64,000 bases of DNA from a virus. Its lineage: Duplodnaviria; Heunggongvirae; Uroviricota; Caudoviricetes. The stretch is from positions 1 to 64,000 of the IMG/VR virus record IMGVR_UViG_3300025000_000063. One strand, given 5' to 3'. How positions within the stretch are numbered: the stretch's first letter is position 1; every line of letters begins with the position of its first letter. Of the stretch, positions 2,834-61,967 are shown piece by piece. A program made the translations under genes and the position numbers. The notes under the pieces are model-generated. The model did not search any database. It saw nothing but the letters and a program-made list of their open reading frames with translations, and was not told the DNA's origin.

Positions 2834-3211
2834 ATGAAAATTAACACCACGAAAAAAGAAGAAATTTTAAAAGCAATTGAAACTGTTGAACTCAAACAAA
2901 AAGCCCGGCTTTTTAATCCTGATAGAATCACGGCCGGAATAAACGCCGCTGAAAAAATCCTTTCCCAGATGTGCCCGGAAAAATACTGGGCAGGTTCTAC
3001 CATAGAATTTTATCCAGAAAAACTGCCCAATGCTTATAAATCCATCGCTATGGGCACTCATGTACGCGCAGAAAAATATCCTTCGGGATGGTTTATCACA
3101 GATATCCGCCGGGGATATTGCGGAAAAAAGGCCTATGGTTCCGGTCCATCTTCTAAACTTTTTTTGTCAGATCTTACAAAGACAAATTTAAAAACTGAAT
3201 TCATCCTGTAA
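2834..3211 (+). CDS. hypothetical early protein (125 aa)
   Basis: ORF, RBS and promoter motif all present. Confidence 0.5.
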   Translation: MKINTTKKEEILKAIETVELKQKARLFNPDRITAGINAAEKILSQMCPEKYWAGSTIEFYPEKLPNAYKSIAMGTHVRAEKYPSGWFITDIRRGYCGKKAYGSGPSSKLFLSDLTKTNLKTEFIL

Positions 3212-3434: not shown

Positions 3435-3929
3435 ATGAACTCATTTAGAAAGATCAACCCTGCAAGCCCTGAAACAATCCTCAACATGACGGACGAAAAT
3501 CTTGCTATAATGGCCGCCATTACCGGCAAAGATATCAGTATCGGGCAGGCGCCTTTAATTGGCAGGTATGGCAACATTGACGGCAAAAGAATATCCGAGA
3601 CAGAACCAGCCCATGCGGACCTTGACTTTGCCTTTGAATGGGCGGAATCGGGAGAATTATGCCGTATTTATGTGGGCTCCAGAATTCACGGGCCTTTGAT
3701 GTCATGGTCAAGCGATGGATGGCGGAATTGTTACGGACACGGAAATCATGGAAAAAACGGGAGCCATGGCGGAACCTGGTCTTCCTCGTCAAAAGAGGTA
3801 TGGGCTACAATGGCTGAAGCCCTGGAAAACAGATCATACAAAGTCAGCGGAATTATGATGCACAAAAACCGGCTGATTGAAGGCCCTGCGCTTATCGAAG
3901 CGCTTCAAGAAATCGCAAAAACAGAATAA
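3435..3929 (+). CDS. hypothetical early protein (164 aa, Gly/His-rich C-terminus)
   Basis: ORF with an AGGAGA RBS. A truncated motif copy, GGGTATTTATTTAAAAA, lies upstream. Confidence 0.5.
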   Translation: MNSFRKINPASPETILNMTDENLAIMAAITGKDISIGQAPLIGRYGNIDGKRISETEPAHADLDFAFEWAESGELCRIYVGSRIHGPLMSWSSDGWRNCYGHGNHGKNGSHGGTWSSSSKEVWATMAEALENRSYKVSGIMMHKNRLIEGPALIEALQEIAKTE

Positions 3930-3930
3930 A

Positions 3931-3990
3931 TTTGACCTCATGCCCTACGGTTTACAGTTTCTGACCGCGGGACATAGGGTTTATAAAAAC
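3931..3990 (+). promoter_or_regulatory. tandem early promoter-like motifs (TTTGACC..CTACGGTTTACAG and TCTGACC-N17-TAAAAA)
   Basis: Two motif copies sit back to back before the ATG at 4003. Confidence 0.45.
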
Positions 3991-4002
3991 ACAAGGAGCT
4001 CC

Positions 4003-4401
4003 ATGAGAATAAAAGCAGGAAGAAAAAGCGACGGCCCTTGTGAAAGAGCCGAGGAATGCGCCCGGGAAAACGGCTTTACCTTAGAACGGGAGCCTTTTGG
4101 AAAAAGAGGAACAAACGTCGAAATATACTTAAACGGGAAAATGATAGGATACCGAAAAAGCTATCAAGGCGCTATAAATTTTATGAAAAAACACAAAGGA
4201 GAACCAAAACAAATGAGACCAAAATCGAACGTGAAAAATCCTACAGCTATGATAATTAAAAACATCCCCAAATCCTTAAGAAAGGCCGTAAATATTGCCG
4301 CTCAAGAAGCAGATATCACCGCCCAGGAATTACATCGCCGAGCGCTATTCTGGGCTATCAATAACATGAGCACCATTAAAAATATGGAAAACGTGATATA
4401 A
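4003..4401 (+). CDS. small basic protein with a C-terminal ribbon-helix-helix-like (Arc/CopG) DNA-binding motif
   Basis: The C-terminus reads IIKNIPKSLRKAVNIAAQEADITAQELHRRALFWAI, a beta strand followed by two helices. The start at 4003 has a GGAGCT RBS. Confidence 0.4.
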   Translation: MRIKAGRKSDGPCERAEECARENGFTLEREPFGKRGTNVEIYLNGKMIGYRKSYQGAINFMKKHKGEPKQMRPKSNVKNPTAMIIKNIPKSLRKAVNIAAQEADITAQELHRRALFWAINNMSTIKNMENVI

Positions 4402-4409
4402 CGGAATAG

Positions 4410-4456
4410 CATACGGTTTATAGTTTTTGACCAATACGTGTATGGTTTATAAATTT
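4410..4456 (+). promoter_or_regulatory. early promoter-like motif copies (TTGACC-N17-TAAATT)
   Basis: CATACGGTTTATAGTTTTTGACCAATACGTGTATGGTTTATAAATT. Confidence 0.45.
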
Positions 4457-4473
4457 TAATGAAAGGAAAAACA

Positions 4474-4581
4474 ATGACTGAAATTTTTGAATACATTGAC
4501 TCCCTGCCGGATAGAGTTTTCTTAGAGCTATTCGTTCTTTGGGTTATAATTTTACTGGCCCGGCCTAAAACCACCAATTAA
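4474..4581 (+). CDS. very small hydrophobic protein (about 35 aa)
   Basis: ATG 4474 follows a GAAAGGAAAAA RBS. It is below the 60 aa cutoff of the ORF track. Confidence 0.3.
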   Translation: MTEIFEYIDSLPDRVFLELFVLWVIILLARPKTTN

Positions 4582-4594
4582 AAAGGAAAACATC

Positions 4595-4756
4595 ATGAAT
4601 CTTAAAAAAGCACTGCCGGCCCTTGGTTTTTGTTTTGGTCTATTACTTGCATCCAATGACGGGAAATACTTTCCGGGGGTCAATATCGTGGGTCTGTTAG
4701 TCTTCGGCTTAAGCTGTTTTAAAATGAACAAGAATGGTGCGGTTTATAAACTTTGA
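4595..4756 (+). CDS. small membrane protein (53 aa)
   Basis: Translates as MNLKKALPALGFCFGLLLAS...GLLVFGLSCF, with two hydrophobic segments. An AAAGGAAAA RBS is present. Confidence 0.35.
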   Translation: MNLKKALPALGFCFGLLLASNDGKYFPGVNIVGLLVFGLSCFKMNKNGAVYKL

Positions 4757-4781
4757 CCAAGTATAAGACGGTCGAAAAAAC
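4739..4781 (+). promoter_or_regulatory. early promoter-like motif copy (TTGACC-N17)
   Basis: GCGGTTTATAAACTTTGACCAAGTATAAGACGGTCGAAAAAAC. Confidence 0.4.
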
Positions 4782-4796
4782 TTAAAGGAGAAGAAA

Positions 4797-5150
4797 ATGC
4801 GTCAATGGATGGCCGATCCTTCCTTGATGTGTCGTAAGCATTTACTTGGTGAACATGTTGAACACCATATGTTTATCGGCGCTTTAAAAAGAGAAAAGAA
4901 TGTGAACGGATACCTGGAAAAAGGCCTTTTAGAACCGCGATCTTTATTCAAGCGCCATGAAGAACTTGTCAAAGAGATGAAAAAGAGAGGGTATAAACAC
5001 TCTTCTCCTTTAACTAAAGAAGACGCGACTTGCATATCTTACCTTACCGAAAAACAGAAAAAAGCTAAAATAAACGCCGCTGTATCTTACAAAGATCTTG
5101 TATTAAGATGCCCTGAATGCTTCAAACTCATGATGGAGGAAATACGATGA
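4797..5150 (+). CDS. pyrimidine dimer DNA glycosylase (T4 endonuclease V / DenV-like)
   Basis: The N-terminal pattern SLMCRKHLLGEHVEHHM and the LFKRHEELVKEMKKRGYKH block resemble the DenV family, which has L.DQHL.AE.RE near its N-terminus followed by ...L..E..KRGF. This was compared by eye only. Confidence 0.45.
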   Translation: MRQWMADPSLMCRKHLLGEHVEHHMFIGALKREKNVNGYLEKGLLEPRSLFKRHEELVKEMKKRGYKHSSPLTKEDATCISYLTEKQKKAKINAAVSYKDLVLRCPECFKLMMEEIR

Positions 5151-5359
5151 TGACAAGAAAAGACATAGGAAAAAGAGTGATTGTATACCACGAAGAAGAA
5201 TTTTTAACCGGTAGGATATGCCAAGTAATTGAGGGCAACCCTTCTATCAACATCGGGGTAGAATTCGACAAGCCCAAATACTACTTTCATGACTGTGGGA
5301 AAACTTGTTCTAAGGGCTTCGGGTGGTATGTAAATGAAAAAGATATTACCTTCGATTAG
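5147..5359 (+). CDS. hypothetical protein (70 aa)
   Basis: Start MMTRKD overlaps the stop of the previous gene. Confidence 0.45.
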   Translation: MMTRKDIGKRVIVYHEEEFLTGRICQVIEGNPSINIGVEFDKPKYYFHDCGKTCSKGFGWYVNEKDITFD

Positions 5360-5370
5360 CCTGGATGAGT

Positions 5371-5432
5371 ATTTGATCGAAAGTGATACGATCGATAAAC
5401 TTTGATTGAACACGGTATGGTCAAGAAGTTTT
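5371..5432 (+). promoter_or_regulatory. early promoter-like motif copies
   Basis: ATTTGATCGAAAGTGATACGATCGATAAAC, then TTTGATTGAACACGGTATGGTCAAGAAGTTTT, lie before the RBS. Confidence 0.4.
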
Positions 5433-15805: not shown

Positions 15806-16225
15806 TCATTCCCCCCAGTTAATAACCCAGTTCTTTTCTTTGCAAATAGCTATGATCAAATCTGAGTCTTTCATTGTTGGAGGACCGGGAACCCACAGGT
15901 CTCTTTTCTCTTGGAAAAAATGCAATCTTTCAACTTTTTTCCCGCCATATGGGCATGGGCCGCCATCCGCCCAGATATCAAACATTTCGGGCTTTGGATG
16001 CGCCCAAGCGTCTCTTCGCATAAGTTCAAGCGTGAGAGCGGGTGGCAATTTACCAAGTTGGCATCTTAATATGCTGACCGGGAAGAAAGCAAAGCTGCAC
16101 CGTTCTGCAAAGCTGCACTGTTCCGGGAAGTTTTTGATTAACGAATAATCCCCGGTAGGGCAGTGTTTGACTCTATGATAGTCAACAGGAAATAAATCAA
16201 ATTCTTTTTGTGTGTACTTTTTCAT
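15806..16225 (-). CDS. hypothetical protein (139 aa)
   Basis: ORF. Its stop overlaps the upstream Thg1-like gene. Confidence 0.45.
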   Translation of the reverse strand: MKKYTQKEFDLFPVDYHRVKHCPTGDYSLIKNFPEQCSFAERCSFAFFPVSILRCQLGKLPPALTLELMRRDAWAHPKPEMFDIWADGGPCPYGGKKVERLHFFQEKRDLWVPGPPTMKDSDLIIAICKEKNWVINWGE

Positions 16226-16926
16226 TTCACCAGCTCCTCTATAATTTCCTTGTTTTCAGTGAAAATCGCATCAGGCCTTGCAGAAATCCCCTCCGCTCCT
16301 CTAAACATAAATCCCCCGTTTTTCCATACCGGGTCGAGATCTGCCCAGTTGATTCCTTTTGTGTAGAGCAATTCATGCAGGTCCGGTGTCTTTTTGTTTT
16401 GGAGTTCCTTGTGCGGGAAATGAGCCTGGGCCAGCATTTGAATAGAATTTCTGAGCCAATCTTGTTGCCTCCAGATGAAATAATTACACACCTCTTCCTT
16501 TGGGATATTGAACACCCGGCAGTCGAATAGCCCGTCTTCGCCAAAGGTTTTTGAAAACTGAACCGAGGCCATACCCGCTGCGACTGAACACATTTTTTGG
16601 ATATTGTAATCAAACCATGCCTCGGTTGTTAACAGTTCGTAGTCTGTCAATAATAAGGAGATTTCATCTGATTGAACGTAGGCGCATTTAGCGCCCTGTA
16701 CTTTCGCTAAAAGGGTCAAAGCGGTTGAGCCCATACACTGTCTGAACATATCGTCAAAAGGTTTGTTGCATTGACGAGTCAGCGTGTGAAAGGCCTTGCC
16801 GTCCAGTCGCATTATGACTGGCGTTCGCCGGGTGAGTTTTAACCGGTAGCGGTCTTCATAATTCTTTTTCATTCTGTCGCCTAAACTGTCATTCTTCATA
16901 TAAACCCCCTTTCCTTCGCCAACCAT
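16222..16926 (-). CDS. Thg1-like protein (tRNA-His guanylyltransferase family, 3'-5' nucleotide polymerase)
   Basis: VIMRLDGKAFH and VQSDEISLLL match the two catalytic aspartate-containing motifs of Thg1/TLP ([VI]V[VI]R.DGR.FH and GQSDEYSF). The C-terminal region, YFIWRQQDWLRNSIQ, also resembles the family. The true start is probably MKNDS at about 16899. Confidence 0.7.
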   Translation of the reverse strand: MVGEGKGVYMKNDSLGDRMKKNYEDRYRLKLTRRTPVIMRLDGKAFHTLTRQCNKPFDDMFRQCMGSTALTLLAKVQGAKCAYVQSDEISLLLTDYELLTTEAWFDYNIQKMCSVAAGMASVQFSKTFGEDGLFDCRVFNIPKEEVCNYFIWRQQDWLRNSIQMLAQAHFPHKELQNKKTPDLHELLYTKGINWADLDPVWKNGGFMFRGAEGISARPDAIFTENKEIIEELVK

Positions 16927-22369: not shown

Positions 22370-23014
22370 ATGAGTAGCCTATATTGGGATGATTTTGAAA
22401 GACGTATATCTGAAACTGTTTCAGCCGTTAATTCAAAAACCAAACCCCCGGTCAGGCGTGTGGCTGTTTTTATAACGAACCGGTGTAATTTCAGGTGTCA
22501 TTACTGCAATGTAAACCAAAACGAAAAAACATTATCCGAAGAAGCTTTTAATGGCATCATTAATCGCTACGGGAGTGGCGCGATAATCCATATAACTGGT
22601 GGTGAGCCTTCCGTTGTTCCTTGGTTATACTCTTATATGGAAAACAGAAAGGATGTCCGGTTTCATTTAAATACTAACGCCTATTTAGCTCCTCCTAAAA
22701 ACATTAAAAGGTTAAAAGTTTCACTGGACACTCAGTATAAAGATTATTTTAATTTTTTAATTGGGGTTAATTTTAACGCTTTCGATTCGGTGGTGGAAAA
22801 TATAAGGCAAGCGTGTAAAAATACGGTTGTCAGTATAACCTATACTTTGACAAAAGAAAACCATAAGGATTCCGTTGAATTCGCCAAATGGGCGTTAAAA
22901 CAATTCCCCGGTCTATACGCTGTTTTTTTCAGTGTTTACAAAGGAGATAATAAGAGGTTTAAGTTTGATGATTTGTCAGTTAAAGTTTTTTTAATCAGGT
23001 GTTACCTAAGTTGA
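22370..23014 (+). CDS. radical SAM enzyme, N-terminal core (CxxxCxxC = CNFRCHYC; ITGGEP SAM-binding motif)
   Basis: VAVFITNRCNFRCHYC and IIHITGGEPSVVP are present. The frame ends just after the slippery run TTTTTTA at 22987-22993. Confidence 0.65.
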   Translation: MSSLYWDDFERRISETVSAVNSKTKPPVRRVAVFITNRCNFRCHYCNVNQNEKTLSEEAFNGIINRYGSGAIIHITGGEPSVVPWLYSYMENRKDVRFHLNTNAYLAPPKNIKRLKVSLDTQYKDYFNFLIGVNFNAFDSVVENIRQACKNTVVSITYTLTKENHKDSVEFAKWALKQFPGLYAVFFSVYKGDNKRFKFDDLSVKVFLIRCYLS

Positions 23015-37261: not shown

Positions 37262-37496
37262 GCATGATTATTGGGATAGCTTGACTGCCGAACAAAAAGA
37301 AAAACATTTACTGGAAAAAGAGAAGGAATTAGGGCTTCCTGAAGGATGTATTAAGCTGTGTCAGCCCTATTTTGAAAGACGCCAGGGCAAAAACATCCAA
37401 GGAATAGAAAGAATAGAAAAACATAGATACTCTTTCTTCCATAAATGCTCAAGCCCTTATTATGCAGTCCCAGGAGGAGAAAATAAAGATGAATAA
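37248..37496 (+). CDS. hypothetical protein (82 aa)
   Basis: ORF. Confidence 0.4.
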   Translation: MKRDEHDYWDSLTAEQKEKHLLEKEKELGLPEGCIKLCQPYFERRQGKNIQGIERIEKHRYSFFHKCSSPYYAVPGGENKDE

Positions 37497-37749
37497 ACAT
37501 GATCCAGAATGGTTAAAACAAAGCGGTTGGTTCAAGTCATTAGAGAAAGACATTTTATTCCCTGAAAAAGCAATCCAGCTTTTAATTGAATCAGATTTTA
37601 AGGTTGAGATTTATTCATCCGATGAGGCGGAAACGCCTCAATGGGTCATCTGCCCTGAAAGAGATCCGTCTTTTTGGCTCAATGCGTTTAAAACAGAACA
37701 GGGGGCCCGGAACTTCTGCCGGGAAATGGAATGGGATATTGTGGAATGA
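37462..37749 (+). CDS. hypothetical protein (95 aa), last gene of the rightward operon
   Basis: ORF. Confidence 0.4.
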   Translation: MQSQEEKIKMNKHDPEWLKQSGWFKSLEKDILFPEKAIQLLIESDFKVEIYSSDEAETPQWVICPERDPSFWLNAFKTEQGARNFCREMEWDIVE

Positions 37750-37751
37750 AA

Positions 37752-37780
37752 TGCCCCCGGCTGGACTCGAACCAGCGCGT
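37752..37780 (-). other. tRNA-like 3' fragment: T-arm (GCTGG-TTCGAGT-CCAGC) + acceptor 3' strand CGGGGGC + discriminator A. No matching 5' acceptor strand was found.
   Basis: Reverse complement of 37752-37776. A cloverleaf could not be completed by hand. Confidence 0.35.
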
Positions 37781-38040
37781 GAAGCTTGACCATCCGATTG
37801 GACCACTGGGGTTAATACCATTCATCATGAACTGAAGGAGCTTTCCTTTCTTGTATCGTAAGCCTTTCACAAGCATACGTCAAAACTGACCGTCTTGGAT
37901 TTTTGCATGATTGACAAGAGCAAACAGTATTGTTTTTTCTCAGTGATCCGATAGATGGAGTGCCCCAAATTTTCCGGCACAATCTTTTCTTAGCTATCAG
38001 ATTCGCTTTTTGAAGCCTTAAATAATTCATGATTTTTAAC

Positions 38041-38070
38041 GGCCTTGGTCGGGAATCGAACCCGGCATGG
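38041..38070 (-). other. second tRNA-like T-arm/acceptor fragment (GGG-TTCGATT-CCC core) next to an 8 bp-stem hairpin (GGCTTGTC...GACAAGCC)
   Basis: Reverse complement of 38041-38125. No full cloverleaf was found. Confidence 0.3.
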
Positions 38071-38196
38071 CTTGTCTGCTGAGAGTACCTCTTTCGACTG
38101 AGGACAAGCCCAGTACTCACATGACCAACTGTTTTTAAAATGCTGGTTACGTTTCCGGCGCTGATGTTTTTGGCAGAGCAGCCGATTTGTGTAGAG

Positions 38197-38243
38197 CCGC
38201 ATCTTGAAGCCAGTTTTTACAGACAAATCAAGATGCGGCCCAT
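38197..38243. other. strong hairpin (12 bp perfect stem GCCGCATCTTGA / TCAAGATGCGGC, 20 nt loop) in the noncoding region
   Basis: Seen directly. No U-tract follows on either strand. Confidence 0.4.
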
Positions 38244-38421
38244 TCCAACTCCTTAAGCGTTCTCAAGGCGATATCCGATCTGGATCTACTGGTGCGCTTG
38301 TGTAAACCGGCTTTGAACCCGATGACAGAGGCGAGTATGGTTTATTATCCATACCAAAGCTGTTTGATTATGTCAAGCTATTTTTGCATAAAAAATCAAT
38401 GCAAATGTTTAAATCGATAAA

Positions 38422-39288
38422 CTATCTCGCCCGTTCGGCATCGTATTTTATACAGTGGTCTGTCCGGCTGTACCAGAAATTAAGCCATGTTGCGCCCTTG
38501 ACTTTAGGCGAAAGCCCTTTTTCAACAGCGAATCCGGCGCTCTGATTCGTGGTTTCATCTTTATATGATGGCACCGAACAATGAATCTGTTCATCAATAG
38601 AAAGCGTTCCTTGGGCCGATATCCGTTCCCTCGGGACCGGGACTATCCATGTGTCATGAGAATGACCCGATAGGATTATATGGGCGTCCGGATGCGTCAC
38701 GGCCCGGCGATTAGTGTTTATGACGCCTTTTGTAACAGGTGAGTTACCACCCGATCCGTGAATGTAACGGATATTCACAGACTGCCTTGCTCCGTTTGCC
38801 CCCTTATATTCAAACTGGACCTTTAACCAGCCAGCATACCCGCCCAAAATAACCGGAGAGCCTTCTTTGTTTAGACGGCTCACAAGCCTTTTTAGAAGGT
38901 TTGTTTCAGAATGTTTCAGCACAGACGTTTCATGATTGCCGAGGCAAAACAGCATAAGATTATCTTTATACGGTGATATGAACTCAAACCCATAATCCAC
39001 CAAGCTATCAAAATATTCCTCTTTGTCACTGACTTCCGGACGCTGGACCCGGCTTCGTCTGTTGTCGTTTCTGCCAGCCATTGAATCAAAGAAATCCCCT
39101 AAGTCAATAACAGGCCAGCCGTTGACCTTGGCGATATCCAGATGCTTTTTTTGCAAGGTAACATCTGAATAGAGGCTGTCTACATGTCTGTCGGACGTTA
39201 CAAGGATTCTGAATTTCCAATTGTTCGCTTGCCTGTACTGTATTTTTAGCTTTGCAACAACTCCTGAAACAGATTCTATTTGCCACAT
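38422..39288 (-). CDS. calcineurin-like metallophosphoesterase
   Basis: DRH/GDFFD, GNHE and GHSHD motifs are present. Confidence 0.6.
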   Translation of the reverse strand: MWQIESVSGVVAKLKIQYRQANNWKFRILVTSDRHVDSLYSDVTLQKKHLDIAKVNGWPVIDLGDFFDSMAGRNDNRRSRVQRPEVSDKEEYFDSLVDYGFEFISPYKDNLMLFCLGNHETSVLKHSETNLLKRLVSRLNKEGSPVILGGYAGWLKVQFEYKGANGARQSVNIRYIHGSGGNSPVTKGVINTNRRAVTHPDAHIILSGHSHDTWIVPVPRERISAQGTLSIDEQIHCSVPSYKDETTNQSAGFAVEKGLSPKVKGATWLNFWYSRTDHCIKYDAERAR

Positions 39289-54133: not shown

Positions 54134-54549
54134 ACTTTTGCCTCTTTCTGTATCATTTCCAATATAGATTTTGCATTCCTGTCTAAAGCACTTTCCAAAA
54201 ACTTTGCCCCGGAACCGGGCCTCTGAAAAGTAACATTTACTGCTTCATGCACTTTCACAGCATAATTAGCGGAGAAACCTAAAGCTACGTAAGGGCCAGG
54301 GACTGCTTGTTTTGGTACTCCTGGATTCGAACCATCCCGCGTATCACCATTACTGGTAACCAAAAAATAACTGGAGCGCAAGTTCCCAGTGTCTACTGGT
54401 ATTTTAGGCTTCGTTTGTTCCATATCCCTACGGACAATTATTGCTGCCCGGATTAACCCTTTTAGAGTTTTACCTGGGATAGCGTCTGTGGCTTTTTTTA
54501 ATTTGCCCAAAACGTCATCCAATCCCTTTAAGTATTTTGCTGGATACAT
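54130..54549 (-). CDS. head-tail connector protein (start adjusted to MYPAKY)
   Basis: The internal ATG gives a clean overlap with the upstream gene stop. Confidence 0.4.
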   Translation of the reverse strand: MYPAKYLKGLDDVLGKLKKATDAIPGKTLKGLIRAAIIVRRDMEQTKPKIPVDTGNLRSSYFLVTSNGDTRDGSNPGVPKQAVPGPYVALGFSANYAVKVHEAVNVTFQRPGSGAKFLESALDRNAKSILEMIQKEAKV

Positions 54550-54895: not shown

Positions 54896-55297
54896 CTAAA
54901 GGACCTCACTGTCATCAAATGATGGTATAGCTTCAATCTTTGCTGTACTTTTCCCGGTATCCACCAAAATACCGGTATAATCTAACTGAGCTACAATCAC
55001 ACCATACGTCGTTGCTTTTAAACCCTCACCAAGCTTCGCGTAACTTTCAGATGCGTCACCAACGGATTTATTTTGTACCTGTCTTTTAACCGTGGTATAA
55101 AGGAGGTGGGCAGTTAAAAACTGCTCGATCTGCTCCAGTAAAGTGTCATCCATACCAGAGGTTGCAACGGTATTGTCAACCATAGTGGAGGCAAGCACGA
55201 TAAAAGCATCAATCACAATTGAGGAAATTGTATCCGGGATAATTGCCTGAACCTCTACATGATTTGTTCTGCTCATTTGTTCCTCCTGGCACGCCAA
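54896..55297 (-). CDS. head-tail connector / head completion protein (133 aa)
   Basis: Position only. Confidence 0.4.
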   Translation of the reverse strand: MACQEEQMSRTNHVEVQAIIPDTISSIVIDAFIVLASTMVDNTVATSGMDDTLLEQIEQFLTAHLLYTTVKRQVQNKSVGDASESYAKLGEGLKATTYGVIVAQLDYTGILVDTGKSTAKIEAIPSFDDSEVL

Positions 55298-55992
55298 AGC
55301 CGTGGCTCAATAAATTCCATAACTGCTTGGCCATTCCACTGCAATCCTGCCCATTCAATGGCATCTTTCAATTCAGAATAATCTGCTTTGACCATCTTTT
55401 CGGGCCAAATTACTTTGGTATTGATCCCTTGATTGATAATCTCATTAAATTTATTTTCGTGAAATTCTACCCAGTAATTCCATCCTTCTTCCGGTTGTTT
55501 AAACCCCATTCTGCGCAGAATATGTGGCTGGTTAAAACTCCGCATAAAAGCAGTTTGCATGCATGAGAATATGATATCCTCTTTTCTCCTGCGAACGATG
55601 ATCCATTTGCTTTCAGGAAAGGCAAAAGCCCAAACAGGCCATAACAAAGACATCTTTGCACATTTGTACATCCAAATGGTTTCCGGGGTCCATCCTTGTT
55701 TTGTAATATTGGCCAAAACCCTCTGCCGTAAATCAAACGGGATCTTCACTTTATTTGTAGGAGGCAATGGAAATTGGCCCAGAGGATCATATCCTAAATC
55801 CCTAAACAAAGGCTTTACAATCTCTTGCCGCAAAGGAAGGTTCTCAAACATCCCCTTCTCATTGTATGCAGACGGGCCTCCGGTATCACCTTTCCAAGCG
55901 CCACACAGGTGGAAACAAGCAGCAACCATAGAAGTTCCAGAACGAGCCGCACCAGTGATTAAGATTGGTTTACTGGAATAGTCTTTTAGCAT
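55273..55992 (-). CDS. sulfotransferase (Stf0 / Sulfotransfer_3-like)
   Basis: PILITGAARSGTSMVAACF is a 5'-PSB-like PAPS-binding P-loop resembling carbohydrate sulfotransferases. Confidence 0.55.
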   Translation of the reverse strand: MLKDYSSKPILITGAARSGTSMVAACFHLCGAWKGDTGGPSAYNEKGMFENLPLRQEIVKPLFRDLGYDPLGQFPLPPTNKVKIPFDLRQRVLANITKQGWTPETIWMYKCAKMSLLWPVWAFAFPESKWIIVRRRKEDIIFSCMQTAFMRSFNQPHILRRMGFKQPEEGWNYWVEFHENKFNEIINQGINTKVIWPEKMVKADYSELKDAIEWAGLQWNGQAVMEFIEPRLWRARRNK

Positions 55993-56381
55993 ACTAAATT
56001 CCTCAAATTCTTCATTTGATATAAAGATAAAGGGTTTTCGTCCTCACCCGGTTCCTCATATTCTGTACCAGGCCACAATGTTCCACCCGGGATATGAATT
56101 AATGCTGCCCCAGGGACTTTTTCAAGCATCATTTGCCGCCATGATTTTTTCGGCATTATTGCTGCTATGATAACATTATTACCTTGCTCCCGGATAAGTG
56201 CTGCAAGACTTGCCATCCTGAATAAATGCTGTTCTCGATCTTGGTCAGAAAATCCTGTGGGATAAATTGCCCGGATAGCGTCACTGTCTAACAGCACAGC
56301 ATCAATATTTTTTGCCAAAGAAGTTGCCAATGTAGTTTTACCCGCACCAGCTTTCCCTGTTATTAAAATAACTTGATTCAT
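55986..56381 (-). CDS. adenylylsulfate (APS) kinase-like P-loop kinase
   Basis: ITGKAGAGKTTLA is Walker A. LLDSDAIRAIYPTGFSDQDREQHLFRMASLAALI resembles the CysC LDGDN[IV]R..L..DLGFS..DR.ENIRR..EVA.L pattern. Confidence 0.55.
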   Translation of the reverse strand: MNQVILITGKAGAGKTTLATSLAKNIDAVLLDSDAIRAIYPTGFSDQDREQHLFRMASLAALIREQGNNVIIAAIMPKKSWRQMMLEKVPGAALIHIPGGTLWPGTEYEEPGEDENPLSLYQMKNLRNLVC

Positions 56382-56448
56382 GCGACTGTCCTCACATTGG
56401 TGAATTCTTTACGCTCTTTGGCAAACAAATCGCTGTTTCTTTTTAGCA

Positions 56449-57204
56449 TTATAAAGTCCTTGCGATCTTGGTAGATAAAAAGGGCAATTCCTTATCCATT
56501 ACTTGATCTAAACGTTCTTTGGAGTAAATAATCTTATTTCGAGTAAATAACTGTGAAAAATTATTGGGCCGGGGCTTCTCGTGCCATTGATGCGTAACTT
56601 GAAGATCATCCCGAAATACAAAAGGGATATTTGAGTAAAAAACCCTATCTCGGAATGAGTCATCATCATACCCATAGCCAATGGTGTATTCCTCGTTAAA
56701 ACCCTTTACCAAATTAAAGTTCTCCCGGGATAAAGCAGTGCAAAAATTCAAAGCCCGGTTTCCGTGGATACTATGTTGATACCATCGTCTAAAAGAGCCA
56801 TCAGGATTGGTTGCTTTGCAAGAACAGATCACATACGCTCCCATGTTCTTTTGAAATTCTGCATCCAGCCCTTTTAAAATATCCACATCGTGCTGACATT
56901 CAGGGCTGCTTAGAATAAGAAAGTCTCCTCTCGCTTCTTTGGCTCCATCATTATAAGCGGTTGCCGGATCATACGCAATCTTTGCACTACAAGGTATAAG
57001 TCGTATTTTAAAGAAAGCATGAAAAGCATCAACCAAGTTCAATAATTCCCTGGTCATCACCAGGGTTTGTTTTTGATCCAGAATAAATAAGATTTCTACA
57101 TCTTCCCTGGTCCCATAAAAAGTAACCAAAGAAACTAAAGTGGCCCTGGTTTGGGGAATCCTATCCAAATAAGGAAATAAAAAAGTATATTTTATGCTTT
57201 GCAT
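56449..57204 (-). CDS. GT-A fold glycosyltransferase (family 2-like)
   Basis: ILSSPECQHD is DxD-like. The C-terminus has GYGYDDDSF. Confidence 0.5.
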   Translation of the reverse strand: MQSIKYTFLFPYLDRIPQTRATLVSLVTFYGTREDVEILFILDQKQTLVMTRELLNLVDAFHAFFKIRLIPCSAKIAYDPATAYNDGAKEARGDFLILSSPECQHDVDILKGLDAEFQKNMGAYVICSCKATNPDGSFRRWYQHSIHGNRALNFCTALSRENFNLVKGFNEEYTIGYGYDDDSFRDRVFYSNIPFVFRDDLQVTHQWHEKPRPNNFSQLFTRNKIIYSKERLDQVMDKELPFLSTKIARTL

Positions 57205-57899
57205 TTTCTTTTATACGCCTTAAAAATAGGAAGATTCCTTTTTTCATCCAACTGAGGGGTATGCCATAAATGGATAACGGAATAAGATAAATTGCGTTTT
57301 ATTTTACATTTATGTATTTTCAGCTTAATATCAAAAACGGTGTCCTCATGACCATAACCGATACATTGTTCCGGAAATCCACCCACCTGAATAAAAACAT
57401 CCTTTTTAATGCAAAAACATCCACCAGAAATTACTGAAGAATCTTGGATTTTGATAGGGTTTTTGACAATTACATCAAATCCCGCGAGGATTACCGCGCT
57501 GGGTATATTTCCTACATAGACAACCTTCCCATAGGGATCAACCACATCATTTTCCTGGATATCTTTGATGGTGGTTAAGTAAACATCTTCTGATACCACC
57601 AGGTCAATATCATGGAAAAACAGAATGGCATACTTAGCGTTCAGGGCACCCAAATTATACAAAAAGGATTTGTAAAATAGCCCTGGATCGTTAACAAAGA
57701 TAACCTCAATACCTTCTTTAAAAAAAGTTTGTTTTACGCCCTGCTCTACCACAATAATTTGTTTTTCAATCGGTAAAGCTTCTATCCGTTTCAAAACAAA
57801 TTTGATGTTTTCTTCCCTGAATTGATCCGCCGCTTTATATGAAAGGATAAAGGAAATCATCACACAAACTCCAAATGGTCGTATTCGGTTGTCATGCAA
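57192..57899 (-). CDS. GT-A fold glycosyltransferase (GT2 / Glyco_transf_7C-like)
   Basis: LFFHDIDL is DxD. GGCFCIKKDVF...GGFPE...GYGHED is a galactosyltransferase-like C-terminal motif. Confidence 0.55.
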   Translation of the reverse strand: MHDNRIRPFGVCVMISFILSYKAADQFREENIKFVLKRIEALPIEKQIIVVEQGVKQTFFKEGIEVIFVNDPGLFYKSFLYNLGALNAKYAILFFHDIDLVVSEDVYLTTIKDIQENDVVDPYGKVVYVGNIPSAVILAGFDVIVKNPIKIQDSSVISGGCFCIKKDVFIQVGGFPEQCIGYGHEDTVFDIKLKIHKCKIKRNLSYSVIHLWHTPQLDEKRNLPIFKAYKRKCKA

Positions 57900-58843
57900 T
57901 CCAAAGCCGTATTATACTCTTGGTAATAGCATCTATAGCAACTGGAACCCTCATAAACTTTCTGAGAAGCAAAATAAGTAGGAATATCCTCAATATGACA
58001 CATCCGCATTTCTTCCGGGAAAACGCCCTGTGTTTCAGGCAAAGCATACTGAACACCACAACAAGGGTAAACAAATCCATCAGGAGCAATCACAGGCTTC
58101 AGTAAACTGATCTTACATTTACTCGTTCCCATGCTGTATTCCTGCCGGGATTGGTAAATGACGATAGAATCATCCACTCCGTATTCTTTCATTAATTCCC
58201 GGATAAAAACCGGCGATGGAACCCGATCAAGGTCAAGGAGATCGCTCACGGCCCTCACGTGGGTGAATCCATGATCGTTTGCAAACTGGACTGCCTTGGC
58301 AAACTTCTGAATTTTAAAATTCCTGGTGACGACATAACTGAATGCCCAATCAATTTTATTCTCTGTGACCAAAGGAAATAAAATGGAAAAGAGTTTGTCT
58401 AAATCCCTGTCATCAGATACACTCACCCGGCACCAAGTCAGGAGTGAAATTTCCTTTAAAATCCTTTCAATGAGATATCCGTTAGTGACAAGCCCTAATT
58501 TAAACCGGGCACCGCTTAAACAACGGATTATCTCAGGTAGATTCGGATGACAGCAAGGTTCCCCACCCCCAGTTATTGTCACAGCCGCTGAACCCAAAGA
58601 ATAAAAGATATCTGAAAGATTTTGCACCTGTTTTAAAGAAAGCTGTTGCGATTTCTCCCTGGCGGAACAAGAACAAAAAGCACAATTCAAATTACATGCA
58701 TTTGTTGGGCACAATTGAAAATGAATTGGTTTGATAAATAAATCATACGTCAAACAAGTCCTGGCAATTCTAAGCAATTTCCCTGGGAGAGTGTTCGCAG
58801 ATGAATATGAAACTACTTTATCAACTGGATTCATTTGTGCCAC
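57860..58843 (-). CDS. radical SAM enzyme with a C-terminal SPASM/twitch-like Cys cluster
   Basis: CPTNACNLNCAFC is CxxxCxxC. ITGGGEP is a SAM-binding motif. The C-terminus has PCCGVQY...C..C...C. Confidence 0.65.
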   Translation of the reverse strand: MAQMNPVDKVVSYSSANTLPGKLLRIARTCLTYDLFIKPIHFQLCPTNACNLNCAFCSCSAREKSQQLSLKQVQNLSDIFYSLGSAAVTITGGGEPCCHPNLPEIIRCLSGARFKLGLVTNGYLIERILKEISLLTWCRVSVSDDRDLDKLFSILFPLVTENKIDWAFSYVVTRNFKIQKFAKAVQFANDHGFTHVRAVSDLLDLDRVPSPVFIRELMKEYGVDDSIVIYQSRQEYSMGTSKCKISLLKPVIAPDGFVYPCCGVQYALPETQGVFPEEMRMCHIEDIPTYFASQKVYEGSSCYRCYYQEYNTALDCMTTEYDHLEFV

Positions 58844-59574
58844 CTATACCCATTCCAAAGTGACGATAATTCCTGGTGAATGATATCGTTCCCATTGTTT
58901 AATTCATGCAGCCTGGGTTCACCAGACCAAGCAATCACAGAAGCTTCATCCGGGATCTTATTGGCCAGATGGATAATTCTTTTACCGACAATGTAGTTTT
59001 CCTGGAGGTGCTCTTGCAGTCTGGGGACGTTATCAACCCCTATTACGGAAGCAATAAAACCCTGGTCTCCGTGCATCCAATTTTCTTGTTTGATGGTCAT
59101 AAATCTTTCAGGGTCTTCAAGGAATAACTCATACACGGGCGAATACTCCCAGAAAGAACCTGCCATAATCCCGCTGGCAAAATTCAGGCTTCCAGGCTTC
59201 CTGAACTTATTGCTGAACCCCCTCAATACAATAAAAGAATGAGAATGAGCTTGCTGGGTAAGTGCGTCGATATTGCCTTTTATGATGGTGTCAAGGTCAA
59301 AATAAACAGAAGGAATTTTGGGCAAGTCCTGCCGAAATAACTCAATCTTGGACCACCAACCCGGCCAACCGTGTTTCAGTTTTTTGGTCTTACATACTTT
59401 TTTGGAAATAAACGCTTCATCATCAGTCAGGCAAAGGAAGGAAATATTTTCAGTAGAATACCGTTGTACTCCTTCCAAAAGACGCAAAACATATTCATCC
59501 GTGTAAGGCCCCCCGGTCTTATACACACATAAAATCTGCGTCTTGGTATTTATGGTCAGACTATCTGTTAACAT
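58831..59574 (-). CDS. putative nucleotide-sugar glycosyltransferase (GT-A-like)
   Basis: CVYKTGGPYTDEYV...FLCLTDD is an N-terminal Rossmann-like region plus DxD. The family assignment is weak. Confidence 0.35.
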   Translation of the reverse strand: MLTDSLTINTKTQILCVYKTGGPYTDEYVLRLLEGVQRYSTENISFLCLTDDEAFISKKVCKTKKLKHGWPGWWSKIELFRQDLPKIPSVYFDLDTIIKGNIDALTQQAHSHSFIVLRGFSNKFRKPGSLNFASGIMAGSFWEYSPVYELFLEDPERFMTIKQENWMHGDQGFIASVIGVDNVPRLQEHLQENYIVGKRIIHLANKIPDEASVIAWSGEPRLHELNNGNDIIHQELSSLWNGYRWHK

Positions 59575-60322
59575 TATTGCTCCTTGCTTTCTTGGTTAGA
59601 GTCAAGGCTTTCTTTAAAGCGGTCTTTAAATCTATCTTTTCAAAACAATCCAAAGCAGAATCAGGCGATACATTCCAGATTTTAACCCCGAGCTTTTCAG
59701 CATCACTGGCGATAAAATGATAATTCTGCATATGGATTTTAAAAGGCACTGGGCTTTCTTTTGTGGGGATACCTTTGTGCAGGTGTTTTATTGTGGGGGT
59801 TTTACCCTTATCCGGGTACCCAGAATGCCAATGAACCCGGCCTCTGGTTTCTTTAAGGTCAATCCCCAAAAGAAATATTTCCCTGCACCCCAAATGGTAT
59901 GCTAAACTGATGGCACCACAAGCGGAATTGTAAGCAACCCAGGACACTTCATTCGGTTTCCTGGTAATGCCGTGTTTATGGCTCTTGTACACGTGATAAA
60001 TGGAAGTAAACATGGGCTCGACGAACTTACCGGCCCCAGAAACTTTAATCCCTCCAAAATCATCATACCAACTCCGGAAGTCACTATACGTGTCGGAATC
60101 ACCAAAAAATGCCACCGGTATTGCATCAGAAACGAAAGCACCTACGTTTACCCCAATGACATGATCACGCATAATTGGCTCCAAGTAAGAACCGAATTCA
60201 TAGTATTCTTCCCGGGTTGTAGGAATAAGGGTTTCAGGCACACCAAATTGATCAGCTACGGAAACCCCTCCGCCCAATATCCAACAATAGCCAGACCATA
60301 TTTGTGGGATAGACCAAAGCAT
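59561..60322 (-). CDS. MAF/DUF115-like (sialyl/nonulosonic-acid-transferase-like) protein
   Basis: YCWILGGGVSV resembles the DUF115/Cst GNGPS nucleotide-sugar motif. This is weak. Confidence 0.3.
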   Translation of the reverse strand: MLWSIPQIWSGYCWILGGGVSVADQFGVPETLIPTTREEYYEFGSYLEPIMRDHVIGVNVGAFVSDAIPVAFFGDSDTYSDFRSWYDDFGGIKVSGAGKFVEPMFTSIYHVYKSHKHGITRKPNEVSWVAYNSACGAISLAYHLGCREIFLLGIDLKETRGRVHWHSGYPDKGKTPTIKHLHKGIPTKESPVPFKIHMQNYHFIASDAEKLGVKIWNVSPDSALDCFEKIDLKTALKKALTLTKKARSNNVNR

Positions 60323-60902: not shown

Positions 60903-61967
60903 CTATGCGGAAAGGACTGTGATACCGCTATTCCCTGCCTGGTCTGCTCTCATCTGGGGCACCTGGATGGCCATAACCTTAAAATGATGGATCATGCCGC
61001 CCTGACTGGACCACTGAATGACTTTGGGGCTGAACCCATTAATCAAACGAACGGTGTCCGATGTCATCTGCGCCAAAATAACTTTGTTCGCAGTGAGTCT
61101 GTCGGCAACCTTAATAGCAGTAAGACCTTCAATCTCCATCAAACGCTGCATAATGGACTTGGGGTACCCGGTTGCATAGTCTTCCGACATCTTTGTCTGA
61201 TATGCCGTAGGAATATAAAGAACCCAGGGGCCATAATGCTTTGCTGTAATGGATGCTTCGATCATGTTCAAAACATCAGCCAGAATGAGTGCGCCGGTTT
61301 TACCAGCAGCATCCCAATTTGCGGAAAGGGTCACTTCATTCTTGGAAGTGAAGGACAGATAGGAATAAATGGTTCCGCCCCCGAACGCATAAGTGGTATT
61401 GGTGAACAGGAGGTCTTCCAGTTTTTCCGTTACTCTGCGGGTGTGTGCTTCAACAATGGTCGTATCAAGGGCATCACCTGAGTTTCTGCTGGCTTCCAGT
61501 GCCCTCTGCCCGATGGTGAAATCAGAATGAATAATGGGGATGGGCAGGTATTTGGTCTGGAAATCAGGCCGGTCGCCTTTACCCTGAGTTGCCCCGTCCA
61601 TGCTCATTGCTGCTTCACCGGGGTCATCCATATCCTGGTATTCAAACACGGTCTTACCCATGGGATTGGTCAGATTGTATGTGAGGCCCCGGCCGAGAAG
61701 ATCAGCAGCACCAACAAGGCGCTCACGGGAAACCTTCTGGACAACTTTATCAATTTCTATCCATTCGTCTCTGAGCAGGGCAGCATTAGCGGTTACCTTT
61801 ACCGCTTTCATTTTGCCGTCAAAGCCTTTCTGGTTAATATATACATGGCCTTTGTGCCAATACGGGCGCATGGCATTCACGTTAAACGATGTCCCCAACA
61901 TGCTTCCGACTTCTGAATCAGAAAATCTTCCGCTCTGAGGATCAACAAAAGTGGTATTCGCTTCCAT
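60903..61967 (-). CDS. major capsid protein (lambda gpE-like, 354 aa)
   Basis: Size and position after a decoration-like gene and a protease/scaffold gene. Highly expressed-type RBS. Confidence 0.55.
   Translation of the reverse strand: MEANTTFVDPQSGRFSDSEVGSMLGTSFNVNAMRPYWHKGHVYINQKGFDGKMKAVKVTANAALLRDEWIEIDKVVQKVSRERLVGAADLLGRGLTYNLTNPMGKTVFEYQDMDDPGEAAMSMDGATQGKGDRPDFQTKYLPIPIIHSDFTIGQRALEASRNSGDALDTTIVEAHTRRVTEKLEDLLFTNTTYAFGGGTIYSYLSFTSKNEVTLSANWDAAGKTGALILADVLNMIEASITAKHYGPWVLYIPTAYQTKMSEDYATGYPKSIMQRLMEIEGLTAIKVADRLTANKVILAQMTSDTVRLINGFSPKVIQWSSQGGMIHHFKVMAIQVPQMRADQAGNSGITVLSA

Follow-up and report, generated by a model that had tools for sequence, protein, structure and literature searches.

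Genes and features of the junction

We analyzed a convergent gene junction in the Caudoviricetes virus record IMGVR_UViG_3300025000_000063, in which two tRNA-like elements, designated element 1 and element 2, are located on the minus strand. The stretch of 64,000 nucleotides that was analyzed (the window) makes up the first 64 kb of a phage contig of 116.9 kb that comes from groundwater metagenomes, and identical copies of this contig are present in several samples. It encodes a family A DNA polymerase, a primase-polymerase/helicase, ParB-like proteins, a tape-measure-sized protein, tail genes and a Thg1-family protein. At the junction, small plus-strand genes stop at 37749 and a minus-strand metallophosphoesterase gene, the last gene of the tail block, stops at 38422; the late (tail, lysis, metallophosphoesterase) and early gene blocks meet here. 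The minus strand of the intervening gap contains, in this order, a promoter-like site, a conserved leader block, a strong hairpin, element 2, a gene for a protein of 72 amino acids (aa) and element 1. Both elements are best read as decaying, non-decoding derivatives of tRNA genes, neither working tRNAs nor bare attachment-site (att) cores, and we assign this reading a probability of roughly 55%. The relevant features are the following (L numbers denote contigs used for comparison).

38347..38376, minus strand, directed into the region: putative promoter-like site TTGACA-17 nt-TATGGA with TGG before the second hexamer, from a three-way alignment
38267..38297, minus strand: block B, 31 nt (GCGCACCAGTAGATCCAGATCGGATATCGCC; GCGCACCAG.AGATCCAGAT.GGATATCGCC), from the alignment with L007
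38194..38241, minus strand: strong hairpin with a 14-bp stem, fold -28.1 kcal/mol, z = -6.3
38041..38111, minus strand: element 2, a 71-nt tRNA-His-type remnant, from sequence reading, its T-arm and the match to the tRNA-His of L140
38033..38066, minus strand: block A, comprising the T-stem 5' arm, T-loop, T-stem 3' arm, 3' acceptor and an 8-nt trailer, from the comparison with L007
37812..38030 including the stop codon, minus strand: small protein gene, 72 aa (MNYLRLQKANLIAKKRL...LRKNNTVCSCQSCKNPRR...), seven homologues
37796..38124, no strand assigned: window-specific 329-nt segment, absent in L013 (BLAST, sequence reading)
37752..37812, minus strand: element 1, a 61-nt tRNA-like remnant, from the Rfam tRNA alignment and the match of its 3' end to bacterial tRNAs
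16222..16926, minus strand: gene for a Thg1-like protein (TLP), 234 aa, Pfam PF04446, E = 1.5e-25

Two elements of tRNA ancestry

The motif GGTTCGANTCC is present three times in the window, whereas 0.06 copies are expected from shuffled sequences, and two of the three copies lie inside the gap, on the same strand and 289 nt apart. Because this count is far above chance, the tRNA T-arm motifs at the junction are not random. The third exact copy (GGTTCGAATCC), at 54323-54333 on the minus strand, lies without a flanking T-stem within a 168-aa minus-strand open reading frame (ORF) of the structural block and is probably a coincidence in coding sequence. The T-arm and 3' acceptor strand of element 1 described in an earlier note on this DNA were found again as GCTGG-TTCGAGT-CCAGC (37776..37760, minus) followed by CGGGGGC-A (37759..37752), and the second T-loop element reported there reads CCGGG-TTCGATT-CCCGA (38065..38049, minus; 4/5 stem pairs) followed by CCAAGGC-C.

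Element 1 begins at the final base of the stop codon of the 72-aa ORF and ends 2 nt from the stop codon of the converging plus-strand gene. The Rfam tRNA model aligns ACCCCAG (37812..37806) as its 5' strand, which forms five of the seven acceptor pairs with mismatches A1.C72 and A6.G67. This strand is followed by a D-like segment with unpaired flanks GTC...GTC, 7 nt in place of the anticodon arm, a perfect T-arm (5/5 pairs, loop TTCGAGT), CGGGGGC and A73. Thus, the earlier view that element 1 can form neither a 5' acceptor strand nor an anticodon arm is right for the anticodon arm, for which there are only these 7 nt, and wrong for the acceptor strand. The Rfam tRNA score of element 1 in a search of 1.1 kb is 22.3 bits (E = 0.07) as compared to a gathering score of 29, and the search of the whole window gave no tRNA match at E<=1. 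The minimum free energy fold is not a cloverleaf (z = -0.33 vs shuffled sequence).

The 24 nt at the 3' end of element 1 are identical to the exact 3' ends of tRNA-Arg(CCU/UCU), several tRNA-Leu and one tRNA-Met in more than 120 genomes of many phyla, which identifies element 1 as tRNA-derived. Its ancestor would accordingly have been a second tRNA gene, whose acceptor was of the GCCCCCG type known from Arg, Leu or Met tRNAs. Identity to these tRNAs reaches at most 4 nt upstream of the 24-mer. Since the match is generic, it is uninformative with regard to the host or an att site, and the comparison with host tRNAs suggested in the earlier note does not discriminate between the readings. More generally, when a T-arm/acceptor sequence is generic, finding its 3' end in a host tRNA is uninformative as an att test. 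In a few of the bacterial hits to the 24-mer (L019 and others among L019-L138) the upstream sequence matches tRNA-Arg(UCU) from the anticodon loop onward only (...GGCTAAGCAGAGGG[C/T]CG); in L019, ARAGORN did not find a tRNA. These hits look like displaced tRNA 3' fragments marking integrated elements.

In element 2, the acceptor strands GGGCTTGT and CCAAGGCC form six of eight pairs if G-1:C73 is counted, with mismatches G2.G71 and U7.C66. The 8-bp acceptor with G-1:C73, the hallmark of tRNA-His, is present both in this element and in the copy of the diverged relative L007. A D-like stem of 4 bp (CCTC/GAGG) encloses the loop AGTCGAAA, which is devoid of GG, and in the anticodon region ACTCT/CAAGC form two of five pairs around the loop CAGCAGA with A at position 33. 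The T-arm has four of five pairs, with a C49.A65 mismatch, and the loop TTCGATT. A perfect 8-bp helix, GGCTTGTC/GACAAGCC, can form as a competing alternative. The sequence was not matched by the Rfam tRNA model, also when scored alone, and its fold is no more stable than that of shuffled sequence (z = -0.34). Inspection of element 2 and of the corresponding 152-nt unit of L007 revealed no GUG anticodon preceded by T in a stem-closed 7-nt loop.

A metagenome scan with the T-loop/acceptor block of element 2 retrieved only the L007-type phage and one complete tRNA-His(GTG), which is located on the AT-rich, apparently archaeal contig L140 and has both G-1 and C73; the match of the 3' block to L140 uses one wildcard position, at which L007 is exact and the window copy differs. 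L007 furthermore has the 12-nt run TGGTGGTGCAGT and GGCCTTG-TGGTG in common with the tRNA-His of L140. Because of G-1:C73 in both copies and the sequence shared by L007 and L140, we regard element 2 as a tRNA-His-type derivative. On the strand opposite this tRNA-His, about 45 nt away (L140 300-420), there is an apparent intron-interrupted tRNA gene, which suggests that the contig is archaeal. Judged by their sequences, both elements are thus of tRNA ancestry.

Comparison with related phages

The locus is represented by three distinct haplotypes only, namely those of the window, of L013 and of the L007 type (L007, L139 and L145). The adjacent gene of L013 shows 99% protein identity and 98.6% identity at fourfold-type sites, and the corresponding values for the L007 type are 85% and 40%, the latter representing saturation.

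L013 lacks the 329-nt segment of the window that holds element 2, the 72-aa ORF and the 5' part of element 1; this segment is flanked by direct repeats of TGGTCA (about 38125..38120 and about 37792..37787). Only a diverged T-arm and 3' acceptor, ACTGG-TTCGAGC-CCAGC-CAGTGGC-A, are retained in L013 beside the stop codon of the converging gene. Thus, the elements vary by presence and absence between near-identical phages. The T-arm/acceptor part of element 1 is identical to L013 at 21 of 25 positions; these four differences correspond to the local background, and one T-stem pair is broken in L013. By this comparison, element 1 shows no sign of special constraint.

In the L007 type, element 1 and the ORF are both absent. 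The intergenic DNA of the window and L007 cannot be aligned except for the promoter-like hexamers, the 31-nt leader block (block B) and the 34 nt of block A, which is the sole part of element 2 conserved in the diverged L007/L139. Block A is identical at 32 of 34 positions (binomial P about 5e-11, with the 40% identity of fourfold-type third codon positions in the adjacent gene as the reference), so that this tRNA-His-like T-arm/acceptor block is strongly conserved in a diverged relative. No shared ORF was found over block A, and protein-coding constraint as the cause of its conservation was rejected because the two copies have no ORF in common. In the 152-nt unit of L007, both the acceptor (GGCCTTG/CAAGGCC) and the T-arm are perfect; a D-like hairpin with GGG in its loop (stem GTG/CAC, loop GATAAGGGTAA) and a long central arm are also present. 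The copies of the window and L007 differ at two helix positions (C49.A65 and G2.G71), and in each case pairing is disrupted in the window copy. The D-loop GG is kept in L007 and missing from the window copy, and the part of the molecule outside the top half varies from 39 to about 120 nt.

More distant relatives have no T-arm element at the junction and other downstream genes; this applies to L011, L012 and L015-L018 (54-61% identity of the upstream gene) as well as to L001 and L002 (38-39%). The converging 95-aa gene is too poorly conserved to serve as an anchor for further relatives. Among the relatives with 54-60% identity, L018 encodes a tyrosine integrase (4237-5415, minus) 1.3 kb downstream of the homologous gene. 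The contig L017 ends inside a tRNA-Pro-like 3' end (4077-4106, minus; GGAGG-TTCAAAT-CCTCT-CGCCCCG-A-CCA) about 200 nt downstream, which points into the phage genes as at a prophage attL.

Search for complete tRNAs and other structured RNAs

ARAGORN, the use of which the earlier note had advised, detected no tRNA and no transfer-messenger RNA (tmRNA) in the 64-kb window; a complete canonical tRNA was therefore called neither in the gap nor elsewhere in the window. It did not detect a tRNA in any of the relatives of this locus either. Complete tRNAs overlooked by eye were ruled out by ARAGORN together with Rfam at gathering and permissive thresholds. Apart from the T-arm (5-bp stem, TTCRANN loop), the elements fail every feature expected of a canonical tRNA, namely the acceptor, G18 G19 of the D-arm and the anticodon arm. 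When ARAGORN was run with a lowered threshold or with introns allowed, its calls were a tRNA-Asp interrupted by a 500-nt intron, a tRNA-Asp of 81 nt and one on the wrong strand across element 2. These calls were discarded because their stems or loops are poor and chance alone would supply the acceptor partner.

Other structured RNAs were likewise rejected. As to tmRNA, ARAGORN gave no call, the Rfam tmRNA models scored about 7 bits from the T-loop alone, and position 3:70 is C-G in both acceptors instead of G3.U70. No intron family of group I/II was matched by Rfam at E<=10 in 37400..38500, and meaningful Rfam scores were absent for Y-RNA-like families and viral tRNA-like structures. Four scans of viral contigs for further copies of the elements or of the leader block returned nothing or only coincidences in coding sequences, and a blastn search of INPHARED gave zero matches.

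Probable decay of two tRNA-gene derivatives

Among the possibilities raised in the earlier note, that of degenerate tRNAs agrees best with these results. The elements are tRNA-derived over most of the length of a tRNA and are missed by every detector; their stems contain mismatches, an anticodon arm is lacking, and L013 is without element 2 and the 5' part of element 1. A common ancestor may have maintained a tRNA-His-derived RNA gene or a site built from a tRNA-His gene. The 8-bp acceptor with G-1:C73, the tRNA-His-like acceptor/D-arm junction of L007 and the TTCGATT T-loop would trace element 2 to such a tRNA-His-type gene. In the lineage of the window, element 2 would then have shrunk to 71 nt, lost its anticodon stem and the D-loop GG, gained mismatches in acceptor and T-stem and become dispensable, up to its presumed complete loss in the sister haplotype L013. 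Element 1 would have lost its anticodon arm and acquired two mismatches in its 5' strand. Selection would have acted on the ancestral tRNA-His-like RNA and have been relaxed recently in the window lineage. Any present activity would be at most incidental, for instance as RNase P or 3'-end processing sites around the mRNA of the small gene, and would not involve decoding.

Several observations weigh against this interpretation. The identity of block A at 32 of 34 positions despite saturated neutral sites is unlike a long-dead pseudogene and indicates that this block is, or until recently was, under some constraint. Both copies have also kept the 5' acceptor strand (GGCCTTGT in L007 and GGGCTTGT in the window). 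An intact tRNA at this position was found in none of the relatives, so that the functional ancestor assumed here is unobserved, and three haplotypes are too few for a covariation test in the stems. In addition, the promoter-like site at 38347..38376 was not called by a consensus scanner, which we attribute to its second hexamer ending in A.

tRNA pseudogenes have been documented in phage genomes (PMC1524935, PMC5852040). As in those that tRNAscan-SE reported in T4-like phages (PMC1524935) and in the jumbo phage XacN1 (PMC5852040), the T-arm and acceptor are recognizable here while stems or anticodon are defective. The likeness extends to the differing presence among close relatives and to the tRNA-processing genes, including Thg1, that such phages often carry. 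In contrast to the pseudogenes of T4-like phages and XacN1, the elements are too degraded to be called as pseudogenes by the detectors, no intact tRNA was detected in the 64-kb window, and the tRNA-His-like T-arm/acceptor is far better conserved than neutral decay predicts. As remnants of tRNA genes in a phage, the elements are a further and fairly ordinary example of a known feature. Neither of these "tRNA fragments" should be annotated as a tRNA or be taken, on its own, as evidence of a temperate lifestyle. What goes beyond the ordinary is a tRNA-His-type T-arm/acceptor block that stays constant across a deep divergence in a lineage of which one member encodes a Thg1-like enzyme.

A possible tRNA-like top-half RNA and the Thg1-like protein

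The conservation of block A could instead reflect a functional tRNA-like top-half RNA, in which the acceptor stacked on the T-arm is selected and the D/anticodon body is free to vary. This explanation is worth keeping in view, although we consider it unlikely. Once transcribed from the putative local promoter, the RNA would have RNase P, the CCA-adding enzyme, histidyl-tRNA synthetase (HisRS) via G-1:C73 or the phage's Thg1-like enzyme as possible recognizers. It might act as a module in the processing or stabilization of the small transcript or mimic tRNA-His; the window copy may still be active. This reading explains best why block A and the 5' acceptor strand have been conserved. The 32 of 34 identical positions of block A have persisted over saturated divergence, and a shared ORF is not their cause. 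In L007, a perfect 7-bp 5' partner, GGCCTTG, is found about 140 nt upstream (chance about 0.04) along with the D-loop GGG. Both elements are oriented like the conserved promoter-like site, G-1:C73 occurs in both copies, a Thg1-family gene is present in the same genome, and the mismatches 1:72 and 2:71 fall into the zone that TLPs can rebuild (PMC4820378). However, the window copy has three helix mismatches and has lost the D-loop GG, and the deletion of the whole element in L013 means that it is dispensable. The folds are not conspicuous by their z-scores (-0.3 in the window, -1.6 in L007), the conserved block extends 8 nt beyond the discriminator, which an RNA model does not predict, and further copies were not found in IMG/VR or in the metagenome scan.

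Top-half RNAs are exemplified by the tRNA-like domain of tmRNA, the stable species 1 and 2 RNAs of the phage T4 tRNA region and RNAs of the mascRNA type. The elements resemble them in that the acceptor is stacked on the T-arm and the anticodon region is absent or replaced; the L007 unit of about 152 nt combines paired ends and a T-arm with a long central arm. They differ from tmRNA in that an Rfam or ARAGORN tmRNA match and G3.U70 are absent and a tag reading frame is not found in the right context. A more specific variant, in which an anticodon-less functional tRNA-His mimic is made from its own promoter and acts as substrate, decoy or partner of HisRS and/or the Thg1-like 3'-5' polymerase or as an RNase P handle, appears improbable to us. 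If the conservation of block A does reflect an RNA function, it would provide a concrete non-decoding partner to test for phage Thg1-like enzymes.

The Thg1-like enzyme invoked in the earlier note is indeed encoded in the window (16222..16926, minus; Pfam PF04446). By templated 3'-5' addition, Thg1-like proteins repair 5'-truncated or 5'-mismatched tRNAs (PMC4820378), and the elements had accordingly been proposed to be 5'-aberrant tRNAs in need of such repair. In this form the proposal is not supported, as missing anticodon arms cannot be restored and the mismatches 6:67, 7:66 and 49:65 lie outside the repair zone. Like TLP substrates (PMC4820378), each element does have one mismatch within the first three acceptor pairs, which TLPs can rebuild (1:72 in element 1, 2:71 in element 2), and a Thg1-family gene lies in the same genome; unlike them, the elements also have mismatches elsewhere and lack anticodon arms, so that repair would give no usable tRNA. 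Homologues of Thg1 occur in 160 sequenced phage records, among them phages of Bacillus, Prevotella, Caulobacter and Mycobacterium, and are usually annotated as tRNA-His guanylyltransferase; XacN1 is an example of a large phage with an annotated Thg1 (PMC5852040). Common as they are, phage Thg1 genes normally accompany real tRNA sets, whereas the phage studied here has a Thg1-family gene and no detectable tRNA in 64 kb.

Attachment cores and an interrupted tRNA as rival readings

attP/attB cores at the 3' ends of tRNA genes serve tyrosine integrases (PMC4383910, Islander), and the earlier note had considered both elements as attP-type cores. Accordingly, block A could be the core, active or relict, of an attP site whose integrase would recombine within the T-loop of a tRNA-His gene of the host. 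This core would represent a tRNA-His 3' end (...CCCGGCCAAGGCC / CCGGGTTCGATTCCCGGCCAAGGCC) followed by GTTA, element 1 would be a second or older core, and the 5' tRNA parts would have been picked up from a host tRNA when excision was imprecise. Block A begins with the 5' arm of the T-stem and runs a few nucleotides past the tRNA 3' end, and in these limits it does resemble a tRNA-gene att core (principle in PMC4383910), the block is conserved as DNA with its trailer included, and temperate signs, namely the tyrosine integrase of L018 and the tRNA-Pro end of L017, are seen at the same junction in relatives. However, an integrase or recombinase domain was found in none of 40 ORFs, which comprise nearly all non-overlapping ORFs of at least 150 aa in the 64-kb window, nor in the 18-kb syntenic contig L145, which has the best-preserved copy. 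Arm-type repeats are absent around either element, except that the two T-loops match each other, and the ParB-like genes hint at a non-integrative lifestyle. The metagenome scan did not retrieve a bacterial tRNA-His with the 3' end of block A, the only match being the apparently archaeal one, and the tRNA match of element 1 is generic. Each element has the orientation of the promoter-like site and includes a 5' half, something that an att core can do without, and element 2 is missing altogether from L013. We therefore rate the att explanation as rather unlikely.

That the locus holds a single interrupted or split tRNA-Asp(GTC), made up of a 5' part near 38325 (GCCTCTG...) and element 1 as its 3' part with a 500-nt insertion in the anticodon loop, seems hardly credible. 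In the intron mode of ARAGORN, this arrangement does have a 7/7 acceptor with two G.U pairs and a 5-bp anticodon stem, and its 5' part adjoins the predicted transcription start and falls in a 32-nt stretch missing from L013; but it emerges only if the threshold is lowered and the intron length left free, a partner of CGGGGGC (G.U allowed) is expected about 1.2 times by chance per 600 nt, the D-arm is poor, C occupies position 37, the supposed tRNA-Asp has a variable region of 16 nt, a group I/II intron was not found by Rfam in the region, L013 loses the supposed exon and keeps most of the supposed intron, which is the reverse of intron loss, and the matching 3' strand is absent in L007.

The small gene between the elements

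The earlier description of the gap as 670 bp of noncoding DNA is contradicted by the 72-aa ORF (38030..37815 without the stop codon, minus), which exactly fills the space between elements 1 and 2. Seven homologues of 70-76 aa with 54-71% identity were found in metagenomes and one more in IMG/VR. Invariant in this family are C37, C39 and C42 (CxCxxC) and LRKNNT, and the CxCxxC motif may possibly bind a metal. Searches of Pfam and PHROG with the 72-aa protein gave zero matches. Elsewhere, the homologues are always located among small early-type phage genes. A mobile, tRNA-flanked cassette containing this gene was rejected, as homologues on other contigs are devoid of tRNA-like flanks. The gap thus contains a real, previously unnamed small gene.

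Promoter-like site, leader block and hairpin

In the window, L013 and L007, the hexamers of the promoter-like site are conserved (TTGACA-N17-TATGRA) and the spacer is variable. A unit downstream of it would be transcribed from its own promoter with a putative start near 38340. The elements, the hairpin and the small gene probably form a small accessory transcription unit at the late/early junction, since these parts are co-oriented downstream of a promoter-like site conserved in three phages. Block B lies near the 5' end of the putative transcript, of which it is the most widely shared part: it is identical to L007 at 29 of 31 positions (P about 6e-10 against neutral sites) and is also present in L013.

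The strong hairpin reported at 38197-38243 is real and extends from 38241 to 38194. It is kept in L013, where a single C-to-T change leaves a G.U pair. A function as intrinsic terminator was rejected because a T-run after the stem is absent on both strands. Within its 5' arm and loop (38217-38254, minus), a Shine-Dalgarno-like AAGGAG is followed after 6 nt by an 8-codon mini-ORF, MGRILICL plus stop, in which the L013 substitution is synonymous (ATC to ATT). The mini-ORF and the hairpin could constitute a regulatory device of the leader-peptide type.

The 32-nt stretch at 38299-38330 (minus), which is absent in L013, corresponds in L007 to a sequence that is similar in length but otherwise different. 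The stretch of the window includes a small T-loop-like hairpin, ATCGG-GTTCAAAG-CCGGT, and together with the preceding GCC it yields GCCTCTG, the 5' acceptor strand of the ARAGORN intron mode. Between the metallophosphoesterase gene and the promoter-like site, relatives carry a block of about 200 nt that the window is devoid of (L013 3942-4146, L007 about 3900-4085, L018 about 2990-3140). Besides AAGGAG with a short ORF of 7-20 codons, this block has a conserved hairpin ACTCAGCAGGTTGTTGAGT and a strong stem that resembles an intrinsic terminator and precedes a T-run. It has the appearance of a leader/attenuator or of a small toxin-like module.

Other observations in the window

Within the virion/structural block, genes for a glycosyltransferase, a sulfotransferase-like, a sialyltransferase-like and a radical-SAM protein follow each other in a run (55273-60322, minus) that adjoins an encapsulin/HK97-like capsid gene (60903-61967). 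This run may be a module for the modification of virion or host-surface glycans. Another radical-SAM gene is located at 22370-23014.

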